From NCBI RefSeq assembly GCF_000025925.1, contig NC_014033.1, forward strand, positions 3,480,001 to 3,512,000: a DNA stretch of 32,000 bases. The letters are read 5' to 3'. Shown here one piece after another: positions 1,714-22,517 of the stretch. The first letter of the stretch is position 1, and the number at the start of each line of letters is the position of its first letter. A program made the position numbers and the translations under genes. Below the pieces are notes generated by a model. It was not told where the DNA came from. It did not search any database and saw only the letters and a list, made by a program, of their open reading frames with translations. The stretch is from Xylanibacter ruminicola 23. GTDB taxonomy: Bacteria > Bacteroidota > Bacteroidia > Bacteroidales > Bacteroidaceae.

Positions 1714-2523
1714 CTATTTCGTAGAATAATATTCTATATCTTCTATCACCAGACCTGCCAACATAAAACCAAAGATAGCGGTGATATGAGCAAGCGTACC
1801 ATTGATCTGGGCTTTAGAAGAGCACCACTCGTGGTTCAACAGACTCTTGTCGCCTGGACCATTCTGGGCTTTGGGGCACATGCACTTCTCGGTGCCACAG
1901 GTGGCATTATGCCCCCGGTTCTCCAGTAGCTCGTCGCTATAAACGCACTGGAACTTTCGCTTAGGGAATTGCTTCTGCGACTTGAATTTCTTTCTAAGTG
2001 CGCGGGCCAGTGGATCGCCCTGTACCTTCCAGAACTCTGTAACTTTGATACGGGTAGGATCCAGCTTTAAGGCAGCTCCCATTGATGAGAACAGTTTGGC
2101 ATTAGTACGACAAGCCAGGAGAATAAGCGTAGCCTTATCTTTCAGCGAATCGATGGCATCGATGATGTAGTCGTAGGTGTCGAGTTCGAACTCATCTGCA
2201 TTCTCTGCCGTGAAAACCTTTTGTAGGGCATTAATCTCTACTGAAGGGTTGATTGTTAGCAAGCGCTCTTTCAGTGCATCTACCTTTACCTGACCGACGG
2301 TCTTTGTGGTAGCCATCAGCTGGCGGTTGATGTTGGTGATACAAACGCGGTCGCTATCCACAATCGTCAAATGCCTGATACCACTACGTACCAGACTCTC
2401 TGCGCACCATGAACCAACACCTCCCACGCCAAAGATAATCACCCTTTTCTGGGCGATGCGCTCCATAGATTCATTGCCTAAAAGCAGTTCGGAGCGACGG
2501 AATATTGCATCATCTGTTGCCAT
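1714..2523 (-). CDS. tcdA: tRNA threonylcarbamoyladenosine dehydratase (ThiF/HesA/MoeB-family E1-like, TcdA/CsdL)
   Basis: RVIIFGVGGVGSWCAESLVRSGIRHLTIVDSDRVCITNINRQL is the Rossmann GxGxxG plus NRQ motif of the TcdA subfamily. I moved the start to MATDD (ATG 2521-2523), 18 nt downstream of a -7 box. The stop codon is TAG. Confidence 0.8.
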   Translation of the reverse strand: MATDDAIFRRSELLLGNESMERIAQKRVIIFGVGGVGSWCAESLVRSGIRHLTIVDSDRVCITNINRQLMATTKTVGQVKVDALKERLLTINPSVEINALQKVFTAENADEFELDTYDYIIDAIDSLKDKATLILLACRTNAKLFSSMGAALKLDPTRIKVTEFWKVQGDPLARALRKKFKSQKQFPKRKFQCVYSDELLENRGHNATCGTEKCMCPKAQNGPGDKSLLNHEWCSSKAQINGTLAHITAIFGFMLAGLVIEDIEYYSTK

Positions 2524-2541
2524 ATCGTTATATTTTGGCTG

Positions 2542-2549
2542 CAAAATTA
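2542..2549 (-). promoter_or_regulatory. -7 promoter box (TAATTTTG on the minus strand) for tcdA
   Basis: The reverse complement of caaaatta matches TAnnTTTG. Confidence 0.45.
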
Positions 2550-2659
2550 ACATATTTCCTGCAAATAAATAACAAAATAGGTCGAAAAATACCAATATAC
2601 CATCAATGTGGTATATGGAATGCCATAGGGTAGGGATTGTGGGGATGGAGAAAACGCCG

Positions 2660-2667
2660 TACCTTTG
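2660..2667 (+). promoter_or_regulatory. -7 promoter box (TACCTTTG, context TACCTTTGCACCC) for the 2831-14517 operon
   Basis: This is the only TAnnTTTG match between tcdA and the ATG at 2831. It implies a ~160 nt AT-rich 5' leader. Confidence 0.45.
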
Positions 2668-2830
2668 CACCCAGAAACATTAATTAATTATTTAAAGGGT
2701 TATAAAGGTATGAAAAGAACAATGCGAATGCGTATGCAAGATGTTTGTTGTTGTCGCCAGATGATGATGACAATGATGATGAAGGAGGGTATATATATAA
2801 TAGGTATAAACAAAATTAAAAAGAAGCAAT

Positions 2831-3709
2831 ATGAAAAAGATAGCATTAACAATAGCAGTATTATTCAGTATCAGCATCAGCAATATTTGGGCTGAAGGTA
2901 ACGGTGTGAACGACGTTAACGAAGTTAAAGGCACCAACAATACAACCGTACGCACCATTAAGGCACCACGCTTTGCGCGTCCATTGGTCGAAAAGTGGAT
3001 TAAAGAATACGCAAAAACACAACCAGGCGTAGAGTTCCAGATTGCAAAGGGACAAGGTAATTCCGACCTGAATGTAGTACTTGATGATAAAAACTTTAGC
3101 CAGATTGTTTATTTCGGAGAGACAGCCGTGCTGCCTATCACCGCACGTAGCTCTGAGGCAGCCCGACTGCTCGAAGGTAAACACTTGAACAACAAGAAAC
3201 TAAAGCAGCTTTATTTCCTGAATGAGGATTTTGACGAGGAAGTAAAGAAGAACAAGGCTTTCGAAACCATCACTGTTTATAGCGGCAGCAATGCCACATC
3301 GGTAGCTTCGTCGTTCGCTCACAATTTTGGCGAGGAGAGCAGCAATTTCCGTGGCAAGCGTATATCAGGCGACGACCTGTTTTTGAACACCGCTTTGGCA
3401 AAGGATCCTCTGGGCGTGTCGTTCAACGCACTTCCTAATATCTTTGATCTGAAGAGCCGCCACCTGAAAGAAGATCTCTCGCTGGTAGGTCTTGACGTGA
3501 AGAAGGACTTGGCCAACAGTTTCAGCGATAACGGCACACTCGACGAACTGCTTACAGCACTCGAGAATAGTAAGGAGTCGGAGGTTGCTATCGAGAAAGT
3601 CGGCATCAGTGTGAACAATGCCGACGACGAGGTGAACAAGTTCTTGGAATGGGTGCTGGCACAGGGCACCAAGTACAACCACGAATATGGATTGTTGAAT
3701 CTTAAATAA
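2831..3709 (+). CDS. Secreted PstS-fold (type II periplasmic-binding-protein-like) protein of unknown ligand
   Basis: Signal peptide MKKIALTIAVLFSISISNIWA. FARPLVEKWIKEYAKTQPGVEFQIAKGQGNS aligns by eye to E. coli PstS [31 protein letters not shown]. The C-terminal NKFLEWVLAQGTKYNHEYGLLNL aligns to [23 protein letters not shown]. The RADGSGT phosphate-binding motif is replaced by YSGSNATS. Confidence 0.5.
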   Translation: MKKIALTIAVLFSISISNIWAEGNGVNDVNEVKGTNNTTVRTIKAPRFARPLVEKWIKEYAKTQPGVEFQIAKGQGNSDLNVVLDDKNFSQIVYFGETAVLPITARSSEAARLLEGKHLNNKKLKQLYFLNEDFDEEVKKNKAFETITVYSGSNATSVASSFAHNFGEESSNFRGKRISGDDLFLNTALAKDPLGVSFNALPNIFDLKSRHLKEDLSLVGLDVKKDLANSFSDNGTLDELLTALENSKESEVAIEKVGISVNNADDEVNKFLEWVLAQGTKYNHEYGLLNLK

Positions 3710-3726
3710 ATAGTAGTATTAGTCTT

Positions 3727-6700
3727 ATGGGAAAAAGATTGTTAGTTGCAACGCTTGTTGCAATAGGGCCCTTAGTGGCCTTTGCGCAGAACCTGATTAC
3801 CGGACACATCACAGACGTTCGCACCGGCGAGCCGCTGATTGGTGCTTCGGTGATAGTGAAAACTGATAAGGGACGAGGTGTGGTGACCGATGTGGATGGT
3901 AACTTTAAGCTTGAGACAAAGGTAGAAGCCCCACTGACCCTGAAAGTAGAATACGTAGGCTATCGTGCCCTCGATGTAGATGTTTACGATTTCGATGAGC
4001 CAGTAGAGATAGCCCTGATTGATAACTCGAACCGTCTGGACGAGGTGGTAGTAGTAGGTTATGGTGTACAGAAGCGTAAGCAGCTTACTGGTGCTGTAAC
4101 TACCGTAAAGAATGATGAACTGCTGAATACCTCGACCTCGTTCGATAACATCCTGGGTGGTGCCGTTGCTGGTCTTGATGCCACAGCATCATCTGGTCAG
4201 CCAGGTGCATCGGTAAATATCCGCATCCGTGGTGGTAACTCTATCAATGCCGGTAACGAGCCCCTTTATGTGATTGATGGTGTACTGCTGTACAACAGTA
4301 GTTCGGCCACTAATGCCGGCAATAGCGTGGCTGGTACAAACTTTAATCCTTTGGCCTCAATCAACCCATCTGACATCGAGTCGATCGAGGTGCTGAAGGA
4401 TGTGTCAGCCTCGGCTATCTATGGTTCGCGTGGTGCCAATGGTGTAATAATCGTAACCACCAAGAGTGGTAAACATGGTAAGGTTAAGGTGGATTACGGT
4501 TATTCTATTGGCGTATCGTCGGTCCGTAAGCGTTTGGATGTGCTTAACGCTGAGCAGTGGGGCGAGTTGTATCTGGAGTTGGCAACCGATGCCCAGAAGA
4601 AAGCTTCGGGTGTTACACCTGAGTTGGTTAAGACTTGGGGCGAGGGCACCGATTGGCAGGATGCTTTGTTCCGTACTGCTACCACCCAGCAGCATCAGGT
4701 ATCGGTAAGTGGTGGTTCGGATAATGAGCGCTTCCATATTTCGGGCAACTATACCAATCAGGATGGTGTGATTCGCGGCTCAGGATTTACCCGCTTGGGT
4801 GCACGTTTGAACTATGAACGTGACATTCTGAAGAACGTAACCGTTGGCCTGAAGACGAGCTTCTCAAAGAGCACTCAGACCGGTTCTCAGTCGTTCCGCG
4901 GACAGTCGAACGGTGTGAGCGGCCTGCTGGAGTTGGCCTTGCGTACATCGCCTGCAGTACCTATTTATAATACTGATGGTACCTACAACTATGCTAATCC
5001 TTTTGAGGCAGGCGACTTTGTGCGCAATGGCCTGACTCCAAATGCTATTGCCGACCTGAGCGAGGTGGATGCACAGACACGTGTTGATAATACGCTGGTG
5101 AGCGCTTTTGCACAGTGGGAAATCATCAAAGGGCTGAAATTGCGTACACAGGGTTCGGTAAACATCCTGAATACCCGTCAGAGTGTGTTCGGTCCTGCCA
5201 CCTCACAGATTGGTTTCAACTCTGATGGCTATGGTGCCGTGGGTTCAAAGCGCTGGGAGAGCGACCAGGTTGAGGTCACCCTGACATGGAACAAGAAAAT
5301 TGGTAATATCCACGAGTTCGAGGTGCTGGGTGGTTATACCTATCAGCAGGAGAAGAGTGAGCGACTGCTGGGCAGTACAGCTGATTATGCCAACGACAAT
5401 CTGGGTTATCAGAGTCTGCAGTCGGGTTCACAGCTGATTGCTACCGAGACCGATTTTGTAACATCGGTTCTTTATTCAGGTATCGGTCGTATCAACTACT
5501 CGCTGCTGGATCGCTACCATCTTACAGCCACCTTGCGTGCCGATGGTTCAAGCCGTTTTGCCAAAAACAAGAAATGGGGCTGGTTCCCATCACTTGGATT
5601 TGCTTGGAATGTGAACGAAGAGAAGTTCCTGAAGAACATCAAGTGGATTGAAGACTTGAAACTGCGTGCCAGCATTGGTACTGTGGGTAACCAGGAGATT
5701 GGCGACTATACCTTCCTCTCAACTTATGCAGCTACCCATTATTTCCTTGGCGGTATTAAGAATACAGCCTATTACCGTTCGGCTTTGGGCAACGACGACC
5801 TGAAGTGGGAAACTACCACCTCGTACGATTTGGGTTTCGACTTTAATATCCTGAAGGGTAAACTGGGTTTTGTTTTCGATGTGTATCACAAGAAAACTTC
5901 CGACCTGCTGCTGAATATTCCTGTTGAGCAGACTACAGGTTTCAGCAGCCAGCTTACAAACGTAGGCAACGTCACCAATGATGGTGTTGAGTTTGCTGTT
6001 AATGCCACCCTTTGGCAGGCCAAGGACCTTACATGGCAGGTGAGCGCCAATATTGCCCACAACCACAACGAGGTAACAAGCATCGGTACCGGACAGAGTG
6101 AGATTATCAACGGCAACCAGACCATTATCCGTCCAGGCGAAGCACTCGGTACTTACTATGGCTGGCAGTTTGATGGCATCGTGCAGACATCCGAGGATTT
6201 GAAGTCGGTTCCTGCACCATCCAACAAACCAGTCGTAGAATATGGCGACGTGAAGTATGTAGATCAGAATGGTGATGGTGTGGTAGATCAGGAGAACGAC
6301 CGTGTAGTACTTGGTTCAGCACAGCCCGATTTTACCTATGGTTTTGCTACTCAGCTGCGTTATAAGAGTTGGAACTTGAGTCTTAACTTCCAGGGTTCAT
6401 ATGGTAATAAGCTTTATAACCAGATGGAACAGGCACTCGAGTCGCCTAATGCCAGCTATAATGCTTCCACCAAGCTGCTGAACCGTTGGACAGCCGAGAA
6501 TCCCAGCACTACCATCCCACGTGCCGTAGCTCAGAATAACTATAGCGCTTATCTTGATAGCCGCTTTATTGAAGATGCCAGTTATCTGCGCCTGAAGAAT
6601 ATTCAGATTGGCTACAATTTCCAGCCCAAAGTGGGTAACAATCAGAAACTGGGTGTTTACCTCTACGCTTCGGCCCAGAACCTGCTTACAATAACCAATT

Positions 6701-6795
6701 ACAGTGGTTATGATCCTGAGTACAGCGGCTACGTAGATCGTGGAACCTATCCTGCATCTCGTACATTTACATTTGGTGTTAAACTGTCGTATTAA
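3727..6795 (+). CDS. SusC/RagA-family TonB-dependent outer-membrane transporter
   Basis: 1022 aa. Signal peptide, then a CarboxypepD_reg-like domain (ITGHITDVRTGEPLIGASVIV...DGNFKL), then the plug (DEVVVVGYGVQKRKQLTGAV...IESIEVLKDASA-like, YGSRGANGVIIVTTK) and a C-terminal barrel ending FTFGVKLSY. There is no N-terminal STN anti-sigma signalling domain. Confidence 0.9.
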   Translation: MGKRLLVATLVAIGPLVAFAQNLITGHITDVRTGEPLIGASVIVKTDKGRGVVTDVDGNFKLETKVEAPLTLKVEYVGYRALDVDVYDFDEPVEIALIDNSNRLDEVVVVGYGVQKRKQLTGAVTTVKNDELLNTSTSFDNILGGAVAGLDATASSGQPGASVNIRIRGGNSINAGNEPLYVIDGVLLYNSSSATNAGNSVAGTNFNPLASINPSDIESIEVLKDVSASAIYGSRGANGVIIVTTKSGKHGKVKVDYGYSIGVSSVRKRLDVLNAEQWGELYLELATDAQKKASGVTPELVKTWGEGTDWQDALFRTATTQQHQVSVSGGSDNERFHISGNYTNQDGVIRGSGFTRLGARLNYERDILKNVTVGLKTSFSKSTQTGSQSFRGQSNGVSGLLELALRTSPAVPIYNTDGTYNYANPFEAGDFVRNGLTPNAIADLSEVDAQTRVDNTLVSAFAQWEIIKGLKLRTQGSVNILNTRQSVFGPATSQIGFNSDGYGAVGSKRWESDQVEVTLTWNKKIGNIHEFEVLGGYTYQQEKSERLLGSTADYANDNLGYQSLQSGSQLIATETDFVTSVLYSGIGRINYSLLDRYHLTATLRADGSSRFAKNKKWGWFPSLGFAWNVNEEKFLKNIKWIEDLKLRASIGTVGNQEIGDYTFLSTYAATHYFLGGIKNTAYYRSALGNDDLKWETTTSYDLGFDFNILKGKLGFVFDVYHKKTSDLLLNIPVEQTTGFSSQLTNVGNVTNDGVEFAVNATLWQAKDLTWQVSANIAHNHNEVTSIGTGQSEIINGNQTIIRPGEALGTYYGWQFDGIVQTSEDLKSVPAPSNKPVVEYGDVKYVDQNGDGVVDQENDRVVLGSAQPDFTYGFATQLRYKSWNLSLNFQGSYGNKLYNQMEQALESPNASYNASTKLLNRWTAENPSTTIPRAVAQNNYSAYLDSRFIEDASYLRLKNIQIGYNFQPKVGNNQKLGVYLYASAQNLLTITNYSGYDPEYSGYVDRGTYPASRTFTFGVKLSY

Positions 6796-6815
6796 TCTTT
6801 AAAGGTATAAGAAAA

Positions 6816-8447
6816 ATGAAAAAGAATCAGATATATCATACAGCGCAATCTCTGTTGGCAGGCGTGGTGTTCGGCTTGACACTTGCATCGTGCGAGTCGT
6901 TGGATCAGGGTAACCTGAGCGAGCTGGCCGAAAGCAATCTTCCTCAGAGCGATGCAGATGCCAAGGCACTTGTTAATGCCGTATATTCGTCGGATATTGA
7001 ACTGGCCACTACTTACATGTATCTTATCGACCTCACTACCGAGACCACCGTGAGCGGTGAGAATCCTAATGGTGGCGGTGGCATGTTAGGACTGCTCTCA
7101 TGGGATGGAACCAACTCCTATGTGGTGAGCCTGTGGCGTGCTGTATATGCCTCGCTGGCACGTGCTAACGATACCATCGAGAAGTTGCAGACTAATCCTG
7201 CAGGCGTGTCACCCGAGATTGCATCGCAGGTGATAGGCGAAGCCAAGTTTCTGCGTGCTTACTATCTGAACTATGCCGTGCAGCTGTGGGGGCCAGTGCC
7301 TGTCATCACCAGCAGCAAAGGCGGTACAAATGCAGTAAGAAACTCGGAGACAGAGGTTTATCAGCAGATAGTGGCCGACCTTGAGGATGCTGCAGCCCGA
7401 CTGCCTGAGCGCAGTAAGCAGAGTCAGAGTGATATCGGTCGTGCCTCGCGTGGTGCAGCCTTGGCAGCCTTGGCAAAGGTTTACCTGACCTGGGCTCAGG
7501 TGGATGACGACCTGACCGATGCGCAGCGCAAGGAGTATTTCGGCAAGTCGGCTCAGTATGCACAGCAGGTGATCGATTCTAATGAATATAGTCTTGAAGA
7601 GGATTTCTATGACAACTGGAACAACCAGAACCGAAATGGTAAGGAGAGCATATTTGCCATCCAGTTCTATCTGGGATCAAGCACACGCGATGGCGATGCT
7701 TCGGGCAATAACCACCTGTGCCACTGCTCGTTCTCAACCAGCTTCAGCGTGTCGCTGCCACATATCGCACCGGGTCCGGACAACACCGTCGAGAATTCAT
7801 ATCTGCCGGGTGATCAGCGCAAGGATGTATCATTTGCCGACTCACTTTGGCGTCCTTCTACACAGAACTATTTCCACTTCTATTTTGATGCCGACGGTGA
7901 TGGCATCCGCGAGTCGGGCTTCTCACGCTACAACAAGTACATCGACCATGACAGGGTTGAGACAAGTGCTGCCGACCGTGCTATGAACCGTCAGGTGATC
8001 CGTCTGGCTGAGGTGTATCTGGTACTGGCCGAGGCTATCAACGAGCGTGACGGACAGCCTAATCAGCAGGCCTATGATGCCTTCAACAAGGTGCGTCGCC
8101 GTGCATTCCGCGAGGATATCTTCAGCGCAGCAGCACAGTCACACGACCTGAAGTCAGGTCTTGACTACGAAGGCTTCAAGAGTGCCATCATACAGGAACG
8201 CTCATGGGAGTTCGTCCTGGAGCAGAAACATCTGCTCGACCTGAAGCGCTGGAAGATTCTGGTGAAGACCATTAAGAATAGTGCTTTGGCCAAGAACTTC
8301 CCAGAGTATAACAAGCAGACGATTGATTTCAAGCATTATCGTTTCCCCATCCCACAAGCACAGCGAGTAGTTAACCCCAATCTCTGGCAGAACTATGGCT
8401 ACGATGGTTCCGACATCACCACCAACCCCTATGTAGGCAGAGAATAA
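6816..8447 (+). CDS. SusD/RagB-family outer-membrane lipoprotein
   Basis: Lipobox LTLASC. It lies 20 nt downstream of susC. It has typical SusD-like TPR-like segments (EAKFLRAYYLNYAVQLWGPVPV, RLAEVYLVLAEA, ERSWEFVLEQKHLLDLKRW). Confidence 0.85.
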   Translation: MKKNQIYHTAQSLLAGVVFGLTLASCESLDQGNLSELAESNLPQSDADAKALVNAVYSSDIELATTYMYLIDLTTETTVSGENPNGGGGMLGLLSWDGTNSYVVSLWRAVYASLARANDTIEKLQTNPAGVSPEIASQVIGEAKFLRAYYLNYAVQLWGPVPVITSSKGGTNAVRNSETEVYQQIVADLEDAAARLPERSKQSQSDIGRASRGAALAALAKVYLTWAQVDDDLTDAQRKEYFGKSAQYAQQVIDSNEYSLEEDFYDNWNNQNRNGKESIFAIQFYLGSSTRDGDASGNNHLCHCSFSTSFSVSLPHIAPGPDNTVENSYLPGDQRKDVSFADSLWRPSTQNYFHFYFDADGDGIRESGFSRYNKYIDHDRVETSAADRAMNRQVIRLAEVYLVLAEAINERDGQPNQQAYDAFNKVRRRAFREDIFSAAAQSHDLKSGLDYEGFKSAIIQERSWEFVLEQKHLLDLKRWKILVKTIKNSALAKNFPEYNKQTIDFKHYRFPIPQAQRVVNPNLWQNYGYDGSDITTNPYVGRE

Positions 8448-8468
8448 ACAAAAAAAAGAGAGAGCAAT

Positions 8469-9737
8469 ATGAAAAGATTAATTTTGTCAGCCGTAATTGC
8501 AAGTGCTACCCTCACGGGGGCACTTGCTCAACAAAACGATCAGCGCCTGAATAAGGCCATCACCGATAAAGGCTATTTTCAGAAAGCCTGGAAGAGTGCA
8601 CCATCATTTCGCGACCTGCTTAAGCGTCGCAAGGCAGCAGTCAATCAGTTCAGAGCTATCCCTACTGCAGCATTGCACCCCATCACTATCAGAGCTTTTG
8701 CCACAGCAGAGCAGCGTGCCGGCACACGTCATGTGATTATACGTGAGCATCAGTATCTGAATGACAGTGGTTACAACAATGGGGGCTTCGACCTGGGAAT
8801 TGGTACTCCCGACCATGTGATTGCAGCTATTGCCGGTGATATCATCGACAGCTACGTCACACAGGCTGCTATCAAGGGCGTTGCCATCGACTCGCTTGCC
8901 ATCAATATCAAGCAGACTGGGCATTCGCTGCAGAACTGGGGACTGGATTATACCATCTTTATTGATTCGCCTGCTTCTGACCAGCAACTTGAGGAGTTAC
9001 GTGTCCTGGCCGAGAAAAACTCACCACTTTATCAGTTCTCTATCCGTGCGCATAAGGTAAACACAACAGTTGAACTGCATAAGAGTGCCGAGGAATTGGA
9101 GATTCCACCTACCTATCAACCAGGTTTGCGTGAGTTCATTGAGTGGGAAACGCGTAAAGGCGAGGCTAACAAGCAGCTTCGTGAAAGCGGTCAGCGTCCC
9201 GATAAGGCAAAGTTTGGTGGCTATGCATACGACTATCCTTACTCTCGTAAGAATGAGTTCACGCCTGCTCAGAGCGAGAGCTATCTGAATCCTGACGGTC
9301 CCACTGCTTTCATCAATCCCTCATCAGGTGTAACCGTACTTCAAGTGCGCCATCACAGAGTGTTGCAGGATCATCCACAGATTTTTGGTGGTAACGACCT
9401 TGGTCCTACAGCTGTTGAGAGTCATATCGGATTGCTTGGTTCGTGCTTTACCCATGTGGCAGAGGGAACCGCAGCACGCAACAGGATTCCACTTGATACC
9501 CTTAACGTAGCACTCACTGCCCAGTTCGACCCACGCAGCGGTCGCAAAGGCTACGAGCAAACCCCACTTTATCCTACCGACATACAGATGCGTGTGGTGA
9601 TAAGCAGTCCACGCAGTGAGGCTGAGATCCGTCAGCTGGTTGCCGATACCGAGCGTGGATGCCCCATCTACAATCTGGTAACCAACGCGCAGGAAATCAA
9701 AGGAGGTATAAAAAGAGTAATAGCAAAGAATAAGTAA
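8469..9737 (+). CDS. Secreted fused double OsmC/Ohr-like-domain protein (paralog A)
   Basis: Type I signal peptide (ALAQQ). The C-terminal half carries both OsmC-type cysteines: LLGSCFTHV (Cys326, nt 9444-9446) and ERGCPIYNL (Cys398, nt 9660-9662). The N-terminal half aligns to it (GGFDLGIGTPDHVIAAIAGDIIDSY / IFIDSPASDQQLEELRVLAEKNSPLYQF), but both Cys positions are replaced. Confidence 0.65.
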   Translation: MKRLILSAVIASATLTGALAQQNDQRLNKAITDKGYFQKAWKSAPSFRDLLKRRKAAVNQFRAIPTAALHPITIRAFATAEQRAGTRHVIIREHQYLNDSGYNNGGFDLGIGTPDHVIAAIAGDIIDSYVTQAAIKGVAIDSLAINIKQTGHSLQNWGLDYTIFIDSPASDQQLEELRVLAEKNSPLYQFSIRAHKVNTTVELHKSAEELEIPPTYQPGLREFIEWETRKGEANKQLRESGQRPDKAKFGGYAYDYPYSRKNEFTPAQSESYLNPDGPTAFINPSSGVTVLQVRHHRVLQDHPQIFGGNDLGPTAVESHIGLLGSCFTHVAEGTAARNRIPLDTLNVALTAQFDPRSGRKGYEQTPLYPTDIQMRVVISSPRSEAEIRQLVADTERGCPIYNLVTNAQEIKGGIKRVIAKNK

Positions 9738-9758
9738 TCATTAAAAATAGAAAGAGTT

Positions 9759-10994
9759 ATGAAAAAGAATCAGATTGTTATCATTACAGCAGCCCTTGCT
9801 TTGCAGGTTAGTAGTGCACTCGCACAGGGGCCTCTCAATATCTTTAAGTCGGCTCAGCAGAAAGCCAAGTTGGAACAGAATGCCCCTTCGTTGCGTAACC
9901 ACCTGAAGGAGCGTAAGGTGGCCCTTGAGGCTTGGAATGCTATACCCGCCAGCGATTTGCAGCCAGTAACACTTACAGCCAATGTTACCGCCAAGAACCG
10001 CTCGGGCGTGCGTGAACTCCGAATCAGAGAGTTTCATTATATTGGCGACTGTGGTTATGCACATGGTGGACAGGATTCGGGTGTGGACACCCCAACTACA
10101 GCTCAGGCCGTGTTTGCTTCCGACCTTGCCGACAGCTATCTGAATCAGGCTGCGCTGCTGGGTATCGATATCGACTCGCTGACTATCGAAATCCACGGTC
10201 AGCCCGACAAGGTGAAGACCAATCGTGTGTGGTATCCACGCAACTTCCTCTACACCATCTATATTGATTCACCTGCCTCGGATGCTGAGTTGGAAAAGTT
10301 GGCAGTATTGGCAGAGCAGAACTCGGCTGTAGCCACTCTGGTGAAGGCTGCCGTAGTACCTCAACTGATTATCGATCAGAAGTCGTCACCACGCGAGAAG
10401 AAGGTTGAAGGCGCCACCTTGGCTGGACTTCGCGAGTATATCTGGGGTAAGCGTCAGGCGCTGCAGGCCAGTAAGGCTAAGGCTGAGGCAGCAAAAGCCA
10501 AGAATCCAAAGGCTGACGCAGATGCCTTGCGTAAAGCACTTGCTCCAAAGCAGGGCCCATGGGTAAAGGTTTTCCCCAATGGTGTGCGTCAGCTAACCGT
10601 AAATGATAAATATCTCATTCTGCACGATAATCCTGCTTATCTGGGTGGTACCAATCTCGGTTTTACCTCAATCGAGGGTGTGCTTGGCATCCTGGGCACC
10701 TGTATCACTCACATCTCATTGGGACAGGCAGCAGAACGCGCACTCGACGTGGATTCTATCTCGCTGACCGTCGAGGCTGAATGGGACCCACGAGCAGGTC
10801 GCAAGGGCTTTGAGAAGGTGTCGATTGCTCCACAGAATGTGCGTTATACTTTGCATGTGAAGACACCCGAAAGTGCTCAGGCCGTGAAAGAGTGGATCGA
10901 GGCTGTTGAGAAGATTTGCCCCATGTACAACCTCTTCAAGGACACACAGACATTCGAGCATCGCATCGTACGTGGTAGTTTTAAAAGACAATAA
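9759..10994 (+). CDS. Secreted fused double OsmC/Ohr-like-domain protein (paralog B)
   Basis: Collinear with paralog A at roughly 35-40% identity by eye. The C-terminal half keeps ILGTCITHI (Cys315, nt 10701-10703) and EKICPMYNL (Cys387, nt 10917-10919). The N-terminal half (FASDLADSY, AEQNSAVATL) lacks them. The linker is Lys/Ala-rich (ASKAKAEAAKAKNPKADADALRKA). Confidence 0.65.
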   Translation: MKKNQIVIITAALALQVSSALAQGPLNIFKSAQQKAKLEQNAPSLRNHLKERKVALEAWNAIPASDLQPVTLTANVTAKNRSGVRELRIREFHYIGDCGYAHGGQDSGVDTPTTAQAVFASDLADSYLNQAALLGIDIDSLTIEIHGQPDKVKTNRVWYPRNFLYTIYIDSPASDAELEKLAVLAEQNSAVATLVKAAVVPQLIIDQKSSPREKKVEGATLAGLREYIWGKRQALQASKAKAEAAKAKNPKADADALRKALAPKQGPWVKVFPNGVRQLTVNDKYLILHDNPAYLGGTNLGFTSIEGVLGILGTCITHISLGQAAERALDVDSISLTVEAEWDPRAGRKGFEKVSIAPQNVRYTLHVKTPESAQAVKEWIEAVEKICPMYNLFKDTQTFEHRIVRGSFKRQ

Positions 10995-11590
10995 TGATGA
11001 AGTATGAGCCTGCATATTTACTCGCTTTGGCTACTTGGCCTGTAACCGTTTGTGCTACCAATGCACAGGCAGACTCACTACGCATAGCTCGTCCGGCCGC
11101 TTTTCCTGCTGTAAGCCGACATCAGACGCTCGACTCGCTGAAAGCAGAAGTGAAGCTGCAACTGGAGCAGCGGTACGGACAGCACTATGGGTGCTCGGCA
11201 CTCTCACTAACCTCTATCGCTGCTACACTGGGCAGTCCACTAAGCGAGCAGCAGCTTCGAAGCATGTCGGAGGCGTTCTCGGGTGGTATCGGGCATAAGT
11301 TTGGCGAAGGCACTTGTGGCGCACTTACCGGTGCCATTGCAGCCTTAGGTTTTTATGCCAGTGGCGATAAGGAGAAACATTTGCGGTTGGCAGCTGAAGT
11401 ATATGATGAGTTTAAGAAGCAACAGGGATCCATTACGTGTGGTGATATCTACGCCCGTTATCATTTTAGTCACTGCGACGGATGTAATCTCTGTGCGATA
11501 CAGAAGGTGATTGAAGTTCTTTACCGTGAGGGTGATATCCACACAAGTACCATCGCCCCATGGCAGCAGTTAACAGAAGAAAAGAAATAA
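10994..11590 (+). CDS. C_GCAxxG_C_C-family putative redox protein with an N-terminal signal-like extension
   Basis: Family motifs are present in order: YGCSALSL, GTCGALTGA (CGAxxG), SITCGDI, HCDGCNLC. About 45 extra N-terminal residues begin with the hydrophobic stretch YLLALATWPVTVCATNAQA. The start ATG overlaps the upstream TAA (TAATG). Confidence 0.7.
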   Translation: MMKYEPAYLLALATWPVTVCATNAQADSLRIARPAAFPAVSRHQTLDSLKAEVKLQLEQRYGQHYGCSALSLTSIAATLGSPLSEQQLRSMSEAFSGGIGHKFGEGTCGALTGAIAALGFYASGDKEKHLRLAAEVYDEFKKQQGSITCGDIYARYHFSHCDGCNLCAIQKVIEVLYREGDIHTSTIAPWQQLTEEKK

Positions 11591-11597
11591 AAAGGAG

Positions 11598-12566
11598 ATG
11601 ATGATTATGGAAAAGAGAGTTTTTACAAGAATTAGCGCGATAGTTTTTTGGCTGTTTTCAGGTTTCGCACTCACTGCCTGCGGAGGTAGTGACGATCCAG
11701 TAGTACCTATCAATATACCAACCGAAGACGACGAATGCTGCAATGCCGAAGAGACATTTCTGGCATATACTTTCCTGCACAACGGTTATCTGAAAGAGAT
11801 TGAATCGCTACGCGACACAATCGATGAGAAATATGCCCTGAGCGTTTACTCGCGAGGTGGCAAACTGCATGCAGGCTATAATGATGTGTTTTTTGCGCTG
11901 ACAAAAATCTCTAATCAAGGTTTTGTTCGTGATTTTTCTGTAACAGAGATAAGTCCCGTGATGACCATGACCGAGAAAGGTATGAAGCACTCAACACCAA
12001 CGGCTACAGAGAGCAGCCTTTACGATGAAACATTCCCTGCCGTACAGCACGCGTGGATATCTTTCGTAATGAGTAGTAGCAGTATGGGCTATTGGGAACT
12101 GGGATACAAGGCAACTACCCAGAATAAAACAGTTGCCCATACCGGTAGTGTTATCGAGGTTTCGGCCAATGCTACAGGCCAGGAGTGGATTAAGTCGTTC
12201 AAATATCAGGATGTAAATTATTACCTCTCGCTGGTAAATCCTAATGATTTCCAGACTGGTATAAACACTATTCAGGCATACGTGTCGCAGCAGAATGCTG
12301 AGAAAGCCAAACCCTGGCCATTGGCTGATCAGGAGTTTACTATCGAAATTATACCCACTATGCCCGATATGGGCAATCATTCTTCGCCCGATAATGTGGC
12401 TCTTACCAAACAGCCATCAGGCATATACGAAGGTAAGCTAAACCTTACCATGACAGGCCTGTGGGATATTCATCTGGTTGTAAAGGACAAAGAAGGTAAC
12501 ATTGTAGCAGGAGGAGAGAATAATGACAGCGGGTATAGCAATATTTATTGGAGCGTTATATTATAG
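11598..12566 (+). CDS. Lipoprotein with two tandem YtkA/FixH-like Ig-fold repeats, each carrying a Met/His motif
   Basis: Lipobox ALTAC (Cys28) followed by DDECC. Repeat 1 contains SPVMTMTEKGMKHSTP ... WISFVMSSSSMGYWELGYK. Repeat 2 contains IPTMPDMGNHSSP ... GIYEGKLNLTMTGLWDIHLVVKD. The G-x-Y...M-x-G-x-W pattern is characteristic of YtkA-like domains. Confidence 0.55.
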   Translation: MMIMEKRVFTRISAIVFWLFSGFALTACGGSDDPVVPINIPTEDDECCNAEETFLAYTFLHNGYLKEIESLRDTIDEKYALSVYSRGGKLHAGYNDVFFALTKISNQGFVRDFSVTEISPVMTMTEKGMKHSTPTATESSLYDETFPAVQHAWISFVMSSSSMGYWELGYKATTQNKTVAHTGSVIEVSANATGQEWIKSFKYQDVNYYLSLVNPNDFQTGINTIQAYVSQQNAEKAKPWPLADQEFTIEIIPTMPDMGNHSSPDNVALTKQPSGIYEGKLNLTMTGLWDIHLVVKDKEGNIVAGGENNDSGYSNIYWSVIL

Positions 12567-14517
12567 TAATGTATTGACCGCTTTGCCAACCGACAGTATC
12601 GAGAAAGAAGCATCGATTAACGAGGTGACTATCACCTCGACTGTCGGTTCCAAGCGCAAGGTGGCTGGCAAGGGGCGTACAGCATCGATAGAGGAGCATC
12701 TGTTGCAGTTGAACAATGTTGCCATGGTGAAACGAGGCGCATATGCCTGGGAACCAGTGGTAAACAATATGTCTACCGAGCGATTGAGTACAACTATCGA
12801 TGGTATGAAGATATTCTATGCTTGTACCGATAAAATGGATCCTGTAACGTCGTATGTAGAAAGTGGTAACCTGCAGCGCGTAAGACTGGATTCGGGCCTT
12901 GATGGCAATCCACAGGCAACAGGAAATATCGGCGGAAGTATTGATCTGAAACTCCGTAAGTCGGGGTTTGATGCTGCTCCTCAGGAGTTTAACCTTACTA
13001 CTGGGTATGAAGCCAACGGCCATCTGCAGGTGTATGGTGCCGATGCTGCGTTCTCGTCGCAGACGTTCTATGCCAACTTCGGCGCGTTTTATCGTGATGC
13101 AGATAATTACAGGGCTGGTGGACATCAGGATGTTCCTTTTTCCAAGTTCCATAAAGTCAATTCGTTTCTGAACCTGGGGTTCCGTCCAGCCCCAAACCAC
13201 ATCGTAGAGGGTACGGTCATTTTCGACCGTGCCACCGATGTTGGCTATCCGGCCCTGAATATGGATGTTAGCGATGCTACAGGACTTATCACGTCGCTTT
13301 CTTATCGCAGGGAGCAGCTTGCGGGGCTTTTCTACCGATGGGAAACCAAGGTGTACTATAATCATATCACCCATAATATGGATGATAGCACACGCCCCGA
13401 CGTGATTATTCACATGGATATGCCTGGTAAAAGCAGTACGGCCGGACTCTATAGTCTGCTCGAGGGCTCAAGGGGTAAACATCAGTATCAGCTTAATTTT
13501 GATTGCTATTACAATACCCTTTTTGCTGATATGACCATGTATGTTGAGGGGGCCAAACCCATGTACATGCTTACGTGGCCTGATGTGGGTACTTTCAACA
13601 GCGGTTTGTCGTTGTCTGATAATATCCGTTTGTCTGATACGCATAGTATCCATCTGTCGGCAAAAGGCTCTTGGCAGCAGCAACGTATTAACAGCGATGA
13701 AGGCTACCACGCCTTGGAAATATTTTTCCCAGGTGTGGAACGTAGCAAGCGTACTTTTATGGGACGTGTGTCTGTAAGCTATGCCTGGCAGAAAAATGGT
13801 TGGCGATTGGCTGCTGGAACAGGATACGGTAATCGTGCACCATCGGTTACCGAGTCGTTTGGATACTTCCTGAATAATGCCTTCGACCGTTATGATTACA
13901 TTGGTAATCCCCACCTTAAGAACGAAAGTGCGGTTGAGTTGAATACATCGGCTTCGTGGCAGAATGATGTGATAGATACTCGCCTAGAGGTGAATGCATT
14001 TTTTTTCCATAACTACATTATCGGTACACCCGATAACCGATTGTCGGCCATGACTATCGGAGCTCCGGGTGTGAAGGTTTACCAGAACCTAAAACATGCG
14101 AAGATTGTGAATACTGCGTTTACATTCAGTGTCACCCCTCTTTCCTGGTTGCGTTGGGACAATAAGGTGAGTTACAGTTATGGCAAGGAGAGCACTGGGG
14201 CTCATCTGCCTTTGATTGCTCCCTTTACCTATCTTACGGCATTGAAACTGTTCCATCAGAACTGGGAAGGAGAATTGGGTGGCGAACTGGTTGGCAAACA
14301 GAGCAACTACAGCAATAAATATGGCGAGAGTCTTACACCAGGCTATGCTGTATGGCATATCAGTGCCGGTTATCAGTTTAACATCCATACGGTTGTAGCT
14401 AATATCCATGTGGGTGTTGATAACCTGTTTGATCGTTACTATTCTACCTATTCAGATTGGAATCATATTCCCCAAAAGGGTCGTAACATCTATGCCAATC
14501 TATCGGTGAAGTTGTAG
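12523..14517 (+). CDS. TonB-dependent receptor (non-SusC type; plug resembles the OprC/NosA copper-receptor class)
   Basis: 664 aa. INEVTITST, then plug segments VAMVKRGAYAWEPVVNNMSTERLSTTIDGMKIFYACTDKMDPVTSYV (compare the GACxxRMDPPxSY motif of OprC-type receptors). The C-terminal barrel ends NIYANLSVKL. It overlaps the upstream lipoprotein gene by 44 nt. The stop codon is TAG. Confidence 0.8.
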   Translation: MTAGIAIFIGALYYSNVLTALPTDSIEKEASINEVTITSTVGSKRKVAGKGRTASIEEHLLQLNNVAMVKRGAYAWEPVVNNMSTERLSTTIDGMKIFYACTDKMDPVTSYVESGNLQRVRLDSGLDGNPQATGNIGGSIDLKLRKSGFDAAPQEFNLTTGYEANGHLQVYGADAAFSSQTFYANFGAFYRDADNYRAGGHQDVPFSKFHKVNSFLNLGFRPAPNHIVEGTVIFDRATDVGYPALNMDVSDATGLITSLSYRREQLAGLFYRWETKVYYNHITHNMDDSTRPDVIIHMDMPGKSSTAGLYSLLEGSRGKHQYQLNFDCYYNTLFADMTMYVEGAKPMYMLTWPDVGTFNSGLSLSDNIRLSDTHSIHLSAKGSWQQQRINSDEGYHALEIFFPGVERSKRTFMGRVSVSYAWQKNGWRLAAGTGYGNRAPSVTESFGYFLNNAFDRYDYIGNPHLKNESAVELNTSASWQNDVIDTRLEVNAFFFHNYIIGTPDNRLSAMTIGAPGVKVYQNLKHAKIVNTAFTFSVTPLSWLRWDNKVSYSYGKESTGAHLPLIAPFTYLTALKLFHQNWEGELGGELVGKQSNYSNKYGESLTPGYAVWHISAGYQFNIHTVVANIHVGVDNLFDRYYSTYSDWNHIPQKGRNIYANLSVKL

Positions 14518-14909: not shown

Positions 14910-15440
14910 TTATTTGTTGATACCTTTCAGCAGTTTCTCTACCTTCTGATACTGTACGGTTGAGAGCAGGATATTGCCTTCGGGTGAGACGACTACCATG
15001 GATGGAATCCACTGTACACCGTAGGATTTAGAGATGTCGGTTTCCTTAAACTTCTTCAGTTCGCTCACCTGGGGATAGCTGATGCCGTACTGATTGATGG
15101 CCTTCTGCCAAGCTTCAACGTTGGTATCCATCGATACGCCTACAAACTCCACCTTGTCGGAGTGGAAATCGTTGTACAGGCGAACTACCTCAGGCGCATC
15201 CTTGCGACAGTCGGGGCACCACGAGGCCCAGAAATCAAGTACTACAGTCTTACCTTTCAGCGAACTGAGGCTGAAGGGTTTGCCGTCGGGGGTATTCATG
15301 GTGAAGTCGGGAGCCACAGTGCCTGGCTGTATCAGACTGGTGGCATACTTGGCATCCAGATCTTCGTCGGTGGTTTGCGCTTTTGTGTTAATGGCAAACC
15401 CCGCTAAGAGCAGGGCTGCCAATAGTGTTTTGAGCTTCAT
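14910..15440 (-). CDS. Secreted TlpA/ResA-like thiol-disulfide oxidoreductase (thioredoxin fold)
   Basis: Signal peptide [21 protein letters not shown]. Active site FWASWCPDC (CxxC). AhpC/TSA-Redoxin-like layout. Confidence 0.85.
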
Positions 15441-15462: not shown

Positions 15463-16953
15463 CTATTTGTTCAGTTTCCAGGTAACACCATCCTTGGTGT
15501 CCTTCACCTCGAAACCGGCTGCTGCGAGTTCATCGCGAATCTTATCGCTGGTAGCCCAGTCCTTATCAGCCTTGGCCTTAGCACGCAGTTCCAGTACCAT
15601 ATCCATTACCTTACCAAAGGCAGCCTCGCGCTCATCGTTGGTGCCGCTCTTCTCGGCCTTCAAGCCCAGAATATCCTCGGCAAAGAGGTGCATGGTTTCC
15701 TTCAGCTCCTGCAGGCAGTCGGCGCAGATGGTGGCTTTGTGGTCGGTGAGCTTGTTCACCACGGTGCAAGCTTCGAACAGATAACTGATCACCTGTGGGG
15801 TTGCCAGGTCGTCGTTCATGGCGTCGTAGCACTTCTGGCGCAGAGCCTTAACTACCTTCTCAGTCTCGGCATCGCACTTGTCGGCTACCTGAACACGCTC
15901 CAAGTCGGCAATGGCGTTCATCATCTTCTCCAATCCCTTCTCGGCAGCCTCCAAGGCCTCGTTCGAGAAATCTACCGTGCCACGGTAGTGAGCGCTGAGC
16001 ACGAAGAAACGGATGGTCATCGGTGAGTAGGCCTTCTTCAGCAATGGGTGATTGCCGGTGAAGAACTGCTCGAGGGTGATGAAGTTGTTATACGACTTAC
16101 CCATCTTCTGTCCGTTGATGGTCAGCATGTTGTTATGCATCCAGTATTTTACAGCGGGGTGACCCATCGAGGCCTGTGCCTGTGCAATCTCGCACTCGTG
16201 GTGTGGGAATACCAGGTCCATACCACCACCATGGATGTCGAACTCTTCGCCTAAGTACTTGCGGCCCATGGCTGTGCACTCGCAGTGCCAACCGGGGAAT
16301 CCGTCGCTCCAAGGACTAGGCCAGCGCATGATGTGCTCGGGCTGAGCCTTCTTCCACAGGGCAAAGTCGGCCTGGTTGCGCTTCTCGCCTACACCGTCGA
16401 GCTCACGACTGGCATCCTTCACGTTCTCGAGCGAACGACCTGAAAGAATACCATACTGGAACTTCTTGTTGTAAGCTTCGATATCAAAGTAGATAGAACC
16501 GTTGCTCTCGTAAGCAAAGCCATTGTCGAGAATCTGCTGAACCAGTTGCTGCTGCTCGATGATATGACCAGTGGCATGGGGCTCGATAGAGGGGCGCAGC
16601 ACATTCAGTGCATCCATAGCCGCATGATAGCGGTTGGTGTAGTACTGGGCAATCTCCATAGGCTCCAACTGCTCCAAGCGGGCTTTCTTGGCAATCTTAT
16701 CCTCACCCTCGTCGGCATCGTGCTCCAAGTGACCTACGTCGGTAATATTACGTACATAACGTACTTTATACCCCAGGTGCTTCAGATAACGGAACACCAG
16801 GTCGAAAGTAATCGCAGGACGGGCGTGTCCCAGATGGGGATCGCCATACACGGTAGGACCACAAACATACATACCCACGTTGGGGGCGTGAAGGGGCTCG
16901 AAACGCTCCTTCTGTCGTGTCAAAGTATTGTAAATTACTAACTTAGATTCCAT
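15463..16953 (-). CDS. cysS: Cysteine--tRNA ligase
   Basis: [19 protein letters not shown] (HIGH motif) and [12 protein letters not shown] (KMSKS-type). I moved the start to MESKLVIYN (ATG 16951-16953), 21 nt downstream of a -7 box. The ORF-track extension to 17091 runs through the promoter and the repeat. Confidence 0.9.
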
Positions 16954-16974
16954 AATGCTCTTAAATTTTGGGTG

Positions 16975-16982
16975 CAAAGGTA
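16975..16982 (-). promoter_or_regulatory. -7 promoter box (TACCTTTG, context TACCTTTGCACCC) for cysS-tlpA-ridA
   Basis: The reverse complement of caaaggta. The downstream gaps of 22 nt and 13 nt suggest the three genes are co-transcribed. Confidence 0.5.
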
Positions 16983-16992
16983 ATAAAAAGTT

Positions 16993-17089
16993 GGCACTGA
17001 TTACACGGATTAACACAGATTTTTTATATAAAGAGCGAAAAATTGCTTTAAATGAATCATAATCCGTGTTAATTCGCGTAATCCGTGCC
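16993..17089. repeat. Imperfect 29-nt inverted repeat built from GGATTA(A)CAC units; REP-like element or long terminator hairpin
   Basis: The left arm ggcactgattacacggattaacacagatt (16993-17021) matches the reverse complement of the right arm aatccgtgttaattcgcgtaatccgtgcc (17061-17089) at 25 of 29 positions. The spacer is 39 nt and AT-rich. On the minus strand it is followed by ctttttatt, which abuts the cysS promoter. Confidence 0.55.
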
Positions 17090-17106
17090 ACCTATCATTA
17101 ATATCT

Positions 17107-20165: not shown

Positions 20166-20170
20166 GGGAA

Positions 20171-21484: not shown

Positions 21485-21500
21485 TTTCTTTAGTAGGTTT

Positions 21501-22517
21501 TTAGAAGTGAACTAAGATACGGAATACCTTGCCAGGTGCCTCGCTCCACTGCAGCATGGCCTTGGGGGCCTGCTCGGGTGCTACGTCGGCACTAATCAGA
21601 CGGTCAACCGGACATGTGCCACGCTCCAGGTAGTGGATCACTGCACGGAAATCCTGTGGCTGGGCATTACGCGAACCACGAATGTCGAGCTCCTTCTGTA
21701 CAAAGAACTTGGTTTGGAACGATACGTCGGTCTTGGCATAGCCGATGCAAACCACGCGACCGGTGAAAGCTACTTCGTTTACAGCCATCTGGTAGGTAGG
21801 TGCGCTACCCACAGCCTCGATAATTACATCGGGACCGAAACCCTCGGTCAGCTCCAGCAATCGGGCATGTACATCCTCGGTCTTGGTGTTGATGGCGTAA
21901 GTGGCGCCCATCTCCTTGGCCAGTGCCAGCTTCTCGTCGTCGATATCGGCAGCAATCACGGTAGCACCGCGCAGGGCCGAACGTACGATAGCTCCCATGC
22001 CAACCATACCGCAACCAATCACCACTACGGCGTCGATATCGGTTACTTGGGCACGATTCACGGCGTGGAAACCAACACTCATAGGCTCGATGAGGGCGCA
22101 GGTGCGGGGATCGAGATTACCAGCGGGAATCACCTTCTCCCAAGGCAGAGCGATGAACTCGCGCATGGCACCGTTGCGCTGTACGCCTAGTGTTTCGTTA
22201 TGCTGACAGGCGTTTACGCGCTGGTTACGGCACGAGGCGCACTTGCCGCAGTTAGTGTAAGGATTGCAGGTTACCACCATGCCGGGCTTCAGGTGTTCGG
22301 GCACGTCGGCACCCACCTTTTCAATCACGGCACCCACCTCGTGGCCAGGTATAACGGGCATTTTTACCATGGGGTTCTTACCCAGCCATGTGCTCAGGTC
22401 GGAACCACAAAAACCTACATACTTGAGGCGCAGCAGCACCTCGTTGGGCTTCATTTCCTGCTCAGGAATGTTTACTATTTCCATCTGGCGCTCGCCAGGA
22501 ATCTGTATTGCTTTCAT
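21501..22517 (-). CDS. Zn-dependent medium-chain dehydrogenase (L-galactonate-5-dehydrogenase-like)
   Basis: GFCGSDL, PGHEVGAVI, the structural-Zn Cys cluster CGKCASCRNQRVNAC, and the Rossmann motif VIGCGMVGMG. The substrate is inferred from operon context only. Confidence 0.7.
   Translation of the reverse strand: MKAIQIPGERQMEIVNIPEQEMKPNEVLLRLKYVGFCGSDLSTWLGKNPMVKMPVIPGHEVGAVIEKVGADVPEHLKPGMVVTCNPYTNCGKCASCRNQRVNACQHNETLGVQRNGAMREFIALPWEKVIPAGNLDPRTCALIEPMSVGFHAVNRAQVTDIDAVVVIGCGMVGMGAIVRSALRGATVIAADIDDEKLALAKEMGATYAINTKTEDVHARLLELTEGFGPDVIIEAVGSAPTYQMAVNEVAFTGRVVCIGYAKTDVSFQTKFFVQKELDIRGSRNAQPQDFRAVIHYLERGTCPVDRLISADVAPEQAPKAMLQWSEAPGKVFRILVHF

Follow-up and report, generated by a model that had tools for sequence, protein, structure and literature searches.

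What could be the role of two adjacent genes for exported proteins of the OsmC fold that lie directly behind the genes of an outer-membrane importer? This question is raised by a locus of Xylanibacter ruminicola 23 (assembly GCF_000025925.1, contig NC_014033.1, positions 3,480,001 to 3,512,000). This stretch of 32,000 nucleotides, analysed as a whole, is here called the window, and positions are counted from its first letter. The two genes, double-OsmC paralogs A and B, each encode a single chain with two OsmC-like units and share an operon with genes for a SusC/SusD-type transporter. The reading that we favour, with a probability of roughly 0.45, is that the double-OsmC proteins would be periplasmic, single-site thiol-redox accessories acting on a cargo that is imported by TonB-dependent transport and is probably peptide-like. 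The parts of this reading differ in strength. The architecture and the export are next to certain and a role as transporter accessory is very likely, while redox action on the cargo has slightly less than an even chance and a disulfide-containing peptide as the specific substrate would be a rather doubtful proposal.

The two genes are located on the same strand and are separated by 21 nucleotides. Their products, of 422 (A) and 411 (B) amino acids, had been described in an earlier note on this DNA as collinear paralogs; the peptides quoted there are present in the translations, and the proteins are 35% identical across 387 residues (expectation value, E, 5e-72). Paralog B represents the more widespread type. 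In paralog A, a signal peptide (residues 1-21) precedes a first unit, consisting of a helix (about 45-63) and an OsmC-like half devoid of cysteines (about 72-205); then come a linker (about 206-278) and a second unit, with its helix at 220-239 and its OsmC half at about 279-416. The N-terminal half had been claimed to align with the C-terminal half, and profile comparison with hhalign agrees: the two half-profiles match with a probability of 99.5% and an E of 3e-22 (alignment of 16 homologs), which becomes 99.7% and 6.7e-26 when the preceding helix is added (77 sequences). Because these helix-inclusive halves align over 163 columns, the repeated unit, of about 175 amino acids, comprises the helix (LR[DE]xLxxR+xA) as well as an entire OsmC domain. 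Each gene encodes a secreted protein that originated by tandem duplication of such a complete unit, and the parent unit belongs to a distinct OsmC subfamily with the motifs S-C-x-T-H and E-x-x-C-P-I-Y-N-L.

The whole proteins A and B match the Pfam OsmC family (PF02566) with 59.3 and 65.3 bits, at a gathering cut-off of 27.5 bits, and the best stretch is situated in the C-terminal third. On their own the N-terminal halves score 14.2 (A) and 22.3 bits (B), below the cut-off, so that they are assigned to OsmC on the strength of the profile-profile match and the structural model. The AlphaFold2 model (predicted local distance difference test, pLDDT, 79.5; predicted template modelling score, pTM, 0.78) displays the order beta3-alpha-beta2-alpha2-beta twice, with a low-confidence linker in between (residues 246-274), and the elements of the OsmC fold (beta1-3, alpha1, beta4-5, alpha2-3, beta6) are found in both halves, as the earlier note had anticipated. 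With Foldseek, every meaningful match in the PDB is an OsmC or Ohr protein, the top ones including 1lql, 2opl, 2onf and 6mjn (probability 1.00). By hidden Markov model (HMM) and by fold the double-OsmC proteins are members of the OsmC/Ohr superfamily; a sequence-profile search of the PDB yielded neither a close relative of solved structure nor any structure of a double-OsmC protein. The pTM of 0.78 suggests a pseudo-dimeric packing of the two predicted halves.

How general this architecture is can be judged from a family set of 107 sequences, 77 from Bacteroidales and 30 unique ones from Lysobacterales. The former stem from 58 loci, collected by a scan of one genome per species, in Xylanibacter/Prevotella, Tannerella, Dysgonomonas, Parabacteroides, Prolixibacteraceae and Breznakibacter; the window itself is 99% identical to Xylanibacter ruminicola. 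The second clade derives from soil and rhizosphere metagenomes and from named genomes of Stenotrophomonas, Pseudoxanthomonas and Luteimonas, and its members are merely labelled 'OsmC family protein' in the databases. In all 77 Bacteroidales and all 30 Lysobacterales sequences, four residues of the C-terminal half are invariant: Cys326, His329, Glu395 and Cys398 in paralog A (codons at 9444, 9453, 9651 and 9660), corresponding to Cys315, His318, Glu384 and Cys387 in paralog B (10701, 10710, 10908 and 10917). Both cysteines, whose codon positions and restriction to the C-terminal halves had been correctly noted before, coincide in alignments with the cysteine pair of solved OsmC structures, and the pair is kept in every member of the set. 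Glu317, nine residues before the first cysteine, aligns with the Glu of 2opl and is conserved in 77/77 Bacteroidales and 27/30 Lysobacterales; Pro399, Tyr401 and Asn402 are likewise invariant among the Bacteroidales. His329 and Glu395 are specific to this family, and each is one helical turn away from a cysteine (Cys326 and Cys398, respectively).

The N-terminal half never has a cysteine at the equivalent positions 124 and 185 in any of the 107 sequences. Paralog A has Asp124 and Ser185 there, in line with the reported substitution by Asp and Ser, and these two are invariant in the 77 Bacteroidales proteins, together with Arg83, Gly85, Arg87, Arg92 and Asp99; Asp127 is present in 72 of them. 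In the Lysobacterales, position 124 is occupied by Ala or Ser, with Asp127 in 29/30 and Ser185 in 30/30. Arg83, Arg87, Asp99 and Ser185 are common to 107/107 N-terminal halves, all of which carry Arg-x-Gly-x-Arg in the loop between the first two strands (beta1-beta2). The C-terminal halves retain only the second Arg of this loop, in 58/77, and have Thr instead in the paralog A clade. The mean pairwise identity is 0.555 for the N-terminal and 0.525 for the C-terminal half, and 25 versus 23 columns are conserved in at least 95% of the sequences. Since the N-terminal half is as conserved as its counterpart and has invariant residues of its own, it is not decaying and is best regarded as repurposed or complementary. 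The idea of a dead site has to be corrected accordingly, and the selection that had been suspected behind the asymmetry of the two paralogs extends to both clades. Between the halves, divergence has been complementary: one kept the canonical cysteines, of peroxidatic and resolving type, and the Glu, the other the Arg loop and an acidic/Ser pocket.

A separate case is P0112, from the metagenome contig L072, a rare form of double-OsmC protein of 365 amino acids without signal peptide and with cysteines in both halves (motifs SSCLVQ/RCGLL and ASCLTH/RCEIV). It might stem from an independent fusion or preserve the fusion in a less diverged state.

Judged from the translations, both window paralogs start with an n-region and an h-region that end in A-x-A followed by Q, without lipobox cysteine, which agrees with the type I signal peptides predicted earlier. 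This ending is the pattern described for substrates of the Bacteroidetes type I signal peptidase. Putative signal peptides can be read in 107/107 family members, and in the Bacteroidales 66 of them are type I-like (A-x-A, then Q) and 11 have a lipobox cysteine. Being soluble and having a type I signal, the Prevotella proteins are most likely periplasmic and not surface-exposed. Duplication profiles and signal sequences together uphold the proposed fusion of two OsmC-type units in one exported chain.

The earlier note had considered the Sus-like surroundings an oddity, and on this point it has to be revised. The TonB-dependent import operon is the defining context of the family, with SusC/SusD in Bacteroidales and ordinary receptors in Lysobacterales. 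A susD gene is found directly upstream in 37 of the 44 Bacteroidales loci that have enough flank to be evaluated, out of 58, and susC plus susD in 36/44. The number of tandem double-OsmC copies is one in 41 loci, two in 12 and three in 5. In distant genera the SusC partner is 45-52% identical to that of the window, compared with about 30% for unrelated SusC paralogs in the same loci, and the module is therefore inherited as a unit. Distant Bacteroidales loci furthermore contain peptidases (S9, M20, M14, S10, C45-like and tricorn), amino acid transporters (SDF and APC) and Lrp/AsnC regulators. This theme recurs in 24/58 loci, and an S9 peptidase gene follows immediately 3' of the double-OsmC gene in 13.

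In the Lysobacterales clade, a TonB-dependent receptor is immediately adjacent in 26 of 31 evaluable proteobacterial loci; the contexts of P0046, P0049 and P0112 are uninformative, their contigs being too short. The partner is either of a type of about 1000 amino acids or of a siderophore-receptor type of about 720, and in six loci the latter is followed by a thioredoxin-fold protein of 530-730 amino acids. Against the siderophore receptor model TIGR01783 (cut-off 223.5 bits), the receptor of locus L068 scores above the cut-off (234 bits) and that of L073 just below it (217.6 bits). The possibility that these partners are orthologs of a second TonB receptor encoded in the window was rejected, as there is no significant similarity. 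At four loci (including L091 and L109, Stenotrophomonas-like contigs), genes for a KatG-type catalase-peroxidase and mutS are situated a few kilobases upstream of the double-OsmC/TonB-receptor pair; this is probably synteny, and it could hint at a link with oxidative stress.

A single chain that resembles a dimer, its export, and the linkage to importers in two phyla are the grounds on which the proteins are taken to be periplasmic single-site thiol accessories that would act on imported cargo. When folded, the single chain would imitate the OsmC/Ohr homodimer, with a single thiol active site in place of two. In the periplasm it would carry out thiol-redox reactions on the molecules that its partner transporter delivers. 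Cys326 could attack the substrate and Cys398 would then resolve the intermediate as a disulfide. As peptidases and amino acid transporters are the neighbours, the cargo in Bacteroidales is probably peptide-like and could contain sulfur, for example in disulfide-linked or otherwise oxidised peptides. Recycling might be performed by exported proteins with a thioredoxin fold or of the C_GCAxxG_C_C family, and not by the cytoplasmic lipoyl proteins that serve classical Ohr/OsmC. The source of reductant, which had seemed unclear, has likely candidates encoded nearby: a TlpA-like protein with WCPDC and an exported C_GCAxxG_C_C protein in the window, and the thioredoxin-fold proteins at proteobacterial loci.

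Eight genes (2831 to 14517) make up the tight window operon, the gaps between them measuring -44 to 21 nucleotides. Their order is PstS-like, SusC, SusD, double-OsmC A, double-OsmC B, C_GCAxxG_C_C, YtkA-like and second TonB receptor (Table 1).

Table 1. Features of the double-OsmC operon and of a neighbouring redox gene in the window
Feature	Position	Strand	Basis
Double-OsmC paralog A, 422 amino acids	8469..9737	+	Open reading frame, PF02566, profile comparison, AlphaFold2 model
Paralog A, N-terminal OsmC-like half, no cysteines	8682..9083	+	hhalign to C-terminal half; R83-x-G85-x-R87, R92, D99, D124, D127, E182, S185
Paralog A, C-terminal OsmC half	9303..9716	+	Pfam OsmC best stretch residues 308-411; E317, C326, H329, E395, C398
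Double-OsmC paralog B, 411 amino acids	9759..10994	+	Layout as paralog A
Exported 292-amino-acid protein, weakly PstS-like (periplasmic binding protein), operon gene 1	2831..3709	+	Signal peptide read from translation
SusC/RagA-type TonB-dependent outer-membrane transporter	3727..6795	+	TIGR04056 E 1e-268; Pfam Plug, barrel, CarboxypepD_reg
SusD/RagB-family lid lipoprotein	6816..8447	+	PF07980 E 4e-32, PF14322 E 1e-24
Exported C_GCAxxG_C_C-family cysteine-rich putative redox protein	10994..11590	+	PF09719 E 1e-17
Lipoprotein, C-terminal YtkA-like domain, conserved ECCNAEETF motif	11598..12566	+	PF13115 E 2e-6; lipobox LTAC then GGSDD
Second TonB-dependent receptor	12523..14517	+	TIGR01778 E 1e-33, TIGR01785 E 8e-19, both far below cut-offs
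Exported TlpA-like thioredoxin-fold protein, WCPDC, outside operon, convergent	14910..15440	-	AhpC-TSA, Redoxin, Thioredoxin_8 matches; signal peptide visible

The adjacent susC and susD genes belong to one operon, with intergenic gaps of 17-21 nucleotides. For the first operon gene there is neither a Pfam nor an NCBIfam match. Weak matches to several PstS structures, the best being 4h1x (E 0.002), come from a profile built on 17 homologs, and an AlphaFold2 model based on 16 close homologs is unusable (pLDDT 36). The gene has more than 2000 homologs, all called 'hypothetical', and is found in front of SusC in 30/58 Bacteroidales loci; it may be an unrecognised component, similar to periplasmic binding proteins, of a class of SusCD operons. 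The start of the C_GCAxxG_C_C gene overlaps the stop of paralog B. Its product scores 46.8 bits against TIGR01909, just below the cut-off of 47.4, and its homologs are present in 23/58 loci, with N-termini that look like signal peptides in 23/23. The YtkA-like lipoprotein gene occurs in 18/58 loci and is followed by the second TonB receptor gene in 15. This receptor, whose true start is probably downstream of 12523, has a distant resemblance, far sub-threshold, to copper and haem receptors. The pair (11598-14517) looks like a separate module for uptake of a small ligand or a metal that was appended to the operon.

None of the eight operon genes encodes a carbohydrate-active enzyme, a hybrid two-component regulator or an anti-sigma regulator of the extracytoplasmic function (ECF) type. 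GH97 is encoded at 18300-20426, on the opposite strand, with cysS between its gene and the operon. It is part of an unrelated minus-strand block (18300-25329), a mix of this glycosidase with enzymes of the sugar-acid type, that also includes genes for an MFS transporter, a zinc alcohol dehydrogenase, an amidohydrolase_2, an aldo/keto reductase and a papain-family C1 peptidase. The cysS gene itself (15463-17091) is near the operon, and divergent from the latter is a ThiF-family E1-like gene (1714-2670, minus strand), which is accompanied by a prokaryotic JAB/MPN gene in the related Prevotella loci L037, L046 and L048. Such a pair is typical of sulfur-carrier systems, and these surroundings might be devoted to sulfur metabolism or reflect no more than synteny. 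The adjacency of the TlpA-like gene is kept in L003 and not in general. At gathering thresholds, Rfam gave no matches, either to riboswitches or to RNAs of other kinds, for the window and for five related loci. A simple terminator scan 3' of the operon, which does not cover Bacteroidetes promoters, found only weak hairpins on the minus strand. An antisense open reading frame for 151 amino acids over paralog B (9741-10196, minus strand), with similar clusters in 28 loci, was judged to be a shadow of the conserved sense frame and not a gene.

Several observations weigh against a redox enzyme for peptide-like cargo. The window operon contains no peptidase, and its SusC/SusD pair is no closer to the peptide-importing RagAB than to SusCD pairs for glycans. 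There is perhaps no single type of cargo, as the partner receptors belong to different classes of TonB receptors. Genes for peptidases and redox proteins are frequent neighbours in Bacteroidales genomes, and for this reason the association could partly be background. Furthermore, the catalytic Arg of OsmC type is missing from the Gly-rich loop, and at the Ohr-type Arg position the C-terminal half of the paralog A clade has Thr. Finally, the arrangement of Cys-His and Glu-Cys at i/i+3 on two helices would suit a metal site equally well.

This last point leads to an alternative that is serious, given the i/i+3 pairs, the YtkA-like/TonB module and the siderophore-type partners, and that is nevertheless improbable as a whole: Cys326, His329, Glu395 and Cys398 could hold a soft metal (Cu, Zn, Fe or Ni) in tetrahedral coordination, by which the protein would receive, release or chaperone metal from an imported chelate or metallopeptide. 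The helices bearing the two ligand pairs, C-x2-H and E-x2-C, come together at the active site of the OsmC fold, and the four residues are invariant in the 107 sequences. Bacillus YtkA/CtaK is a copper chaperone, and Prevotella operons combine a YtkA-like lipoprotein with a receptor that gives weak matches to copper and haem receptors; some proteobacterial partner receptors are around the siderophore-receptor cut-off (L068 and L073). A metal site would also make a periplasmic reductant unnecessary. However, the related families include selenocysteine variants, which are typical of redox catalysis (the C-terminal half matches NF041052 with 56-59 bits), and Glu317 of the peroxidase triad is still conserved. 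Moreover, the commonest neighbours in distant loci are peptidases and amino acid transporters instead of metal exporters or importers; Rfam revealed no riboswitch, and no metal regulator is present among the scanned neighbours.

It could also be imagined that the double-OsmC proteins are ordinary antioxidants, that is, periplasmic peroxidases of the Ohr/OsmC type that guard the envelope against organic hydroperoxides or peroxynitrite, with a proximity to transporters due to co-regulation or chance. The Pfam OsmC score far above threshold, the canonical cysteine pair with its Glu, and the Ohr-like Arg loop in the N-terminal half and most C-terminal halves would fit such a function, as would the KatG gene close by at some Stenotrophomonas loci. 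Single-domain relatives, moreover, co-occur with AhpD-like CMD proteins, and AhpD reduces OsmC (PMC8945050). A transporter linkage in two phyla (37/44 and 26/31) is nonetheless hard to attribute to chance, and the hosts include strict anaerobes from rumen and termite gut. The classical lipoyl reductants are cytoplasmic (PMC8945050, PMC5384416), and the family-specific, invariant His329 and Glu395 point to an altered chemistry. This explanation, too, seems improbable.

Least likely of all is a non-catalytic receptor or adaptor, a pseudo-dimer that would bind the imported molecule or the plug/TonB-box region of the transporter and use its cysteines for a structural disulfide: equal conservation of the halves, an invariant pocket in the Cys-less one, a gene order typical of binding partners directly beside the transporter, and solved Ohr pockets that hold dihydrolipoamide or captopril (6ebg and 3lus, by the PDB entry descriptions) would agree with it, but a structural disulfide needs no invariant set of Glu317, His329 and Glu395, cytoplasmic single-domain relatives keep the Cys/His/Glu/Cys residues in a reducing compartment, and redox-protein neighbours recur.

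Beyond the thiol accessory that we prefer, a broader and more speculative interpretation is possible, to which we attach well under an even chance. The family could be the first dedicated periplasmic thiol enzyme for cargo processing, or a Cys2-His-Glu metal site, that co-evolved with TonB-dependent importers in Bacteroidota and Proteobacteria. It would have been built from a fused homodimer whose halves degenerated in a complementary manner, so that the Arg loop and a second, acidic binding pocket would come from the half without cysteines and the reactive cysteines from the other. If this is true, there would be a new step in nutrient uptake: the reductive unlocking or capture, between the membranes, of peptides that bear disulfides, persulfides, lipoyl groups or metals.

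According to the open-access literature, in which we found no description of exported, tandem or transporter-linked OsmC proteins, both the exported OsmC-OsmC architecture and its link with TonB-dependent transport are previously undescribed. A secreted, single-chain OsmC protein with one site would extend the fold to a new compartment, to new partners and probably to a new class of substrates. It points to a large group of SusCD/TonB loci with non-glycan cargo, in Bacteroidales from rumen, termite gut and human gut and in Lysobacterales from soil, in which import appears to be coupled to thiol or metal chemistry. The family also offers a clean example from nature of how the halves of a fused homodimer can diverge asymmetrically, an asymmetry maintained across two phyla and through repeated duplication into one to three tandem copies. 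The predictions can be tested directly in culturable hosts, such as Xylanibacter ruminicola, Parabacteroides distasonis and Stenotrophomonas rhizophila.

Among known systems, the Ohr/OsmC peroxidases (OsmC of E. coli, Ohr of Xylella and Pseudomonas) have the fold in common with the double-OsmC proteins, as judged by HMM, model and Foldseek. Their two subunits are tightly intertwined, and the homodimer has two identical sites at its interface, each formed by a peroxidatic Cys on a central helix, a resolving Cys, a Glu and an Arg; recycling is by lipoylated proteins or AhpD (PMC5962072, PMC8945050, PMC5384416). As the homodimer is obligate, the functional unit has two OsmC domains (PMC5962072); in the double-OsmC proteins the two domains are in one chain, with cysteines at one site. 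The canonical cysteine pair and the Glu before the first cysteine are retained in the C-terminal half only, the invariant His at +3 from Cys326 and Glu at -3 from Cys398 are additional, and the OsmC-type Arg in the Gly-rich loop is absent from both halves. Whereas Ohr/OsmC proteins are cytoplasmic or mitochondrial, the double-OsmC proteins are predicted to be exported, and recycling by lipoyl proteins (PMC8945050) would therefore be out of their reach. Three features of the characterised peroxidases thus appear to be lacking: the two-site homodimer, the cytoplasmic location with lipoyl recycling, and the OsmC-type Arg. The genomic partners differ as well, being TonB-dependent transporters in one case and OhrR-type or stress regulons in the other.

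Closer relatives are found in a cytoplasmic single-domain subfamily with the pattern SCxTH...ExxCP (Paenibacillus; P0055 and P0057), of 170-195 amino acids and without signal peptide. It shares with the double-OsmC unit the LxEYLxxKRxA helix, the RxGxR loop, SC(L/I)TH and ExxCP(I/V)xNL, and its profile matches the C-terminal half with an E of 7e-62 and the N-terminal half with 2e-45. With one domain per chain, these proteins presumably form homodimers with two live sites. Their genes (loci L059-L063 and L117-L129, from Paenibacillus, Cohnella and metagenome contigs) adjoin importers of the Opp type, from the ATP-binding cassette (ABC) class, with an SBP_bac_5 protein, two permeases and two ATPases, and not an outer-membrane transporter. 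Like the double-OsmC genes, they are thus encoded beside an import system and a peptidase of family S9, which shares 33% identity with its Bacteroidales counterpart; AhpD-like CMD proteins, a tandem rhodanese and LysR regulators are further neighbours. The peptide and sulfur theme is echoed here in a different phylum and compartment. More distantly, the best NCBIfam match of the C-terminal half is NF041052, an OsmC-related (seleno)protein family, with 58.9 (A) and 55.9 bits (B), under the cut-off of 95, and the best single-domain sequence match in the PDB is GSU2788 (2opl). Both are single-domain and of unknown function, and 2opl, unlike the double-OsmC proteins, has neither the His at +3 nor a second Cys in the aligned positions. 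Fusions of an esterase with OsmC (PMC5113044) are multidomain proteins as well, although they combine OsmC with an alpha/beta-hydrolase instead of a second OsmC domain and, in the accessible part of that source, are not connected with a transporter.

The last comparison concerns the loci themselves. SusCD-type pairs such as RagAB are able to import peptides (bioRxiv 10.1101/755678). Assignment of the window pair as specifically RagAB-like was rejected: SusCD systems for dextran and levan reach higher scores. Among the PDB matches of the window SusC, RagA ranks only fourth, and those of SusD do not include RagB. The double-OsmC gene comes straight after susD, which is where polysaccharide loci place their accessory proteins. 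In SusCD loci that accessory is a glycan-binding lipoprotein or a glycoside hydrolase; here, the position is taken by a thiol protein with the OsmC fold.

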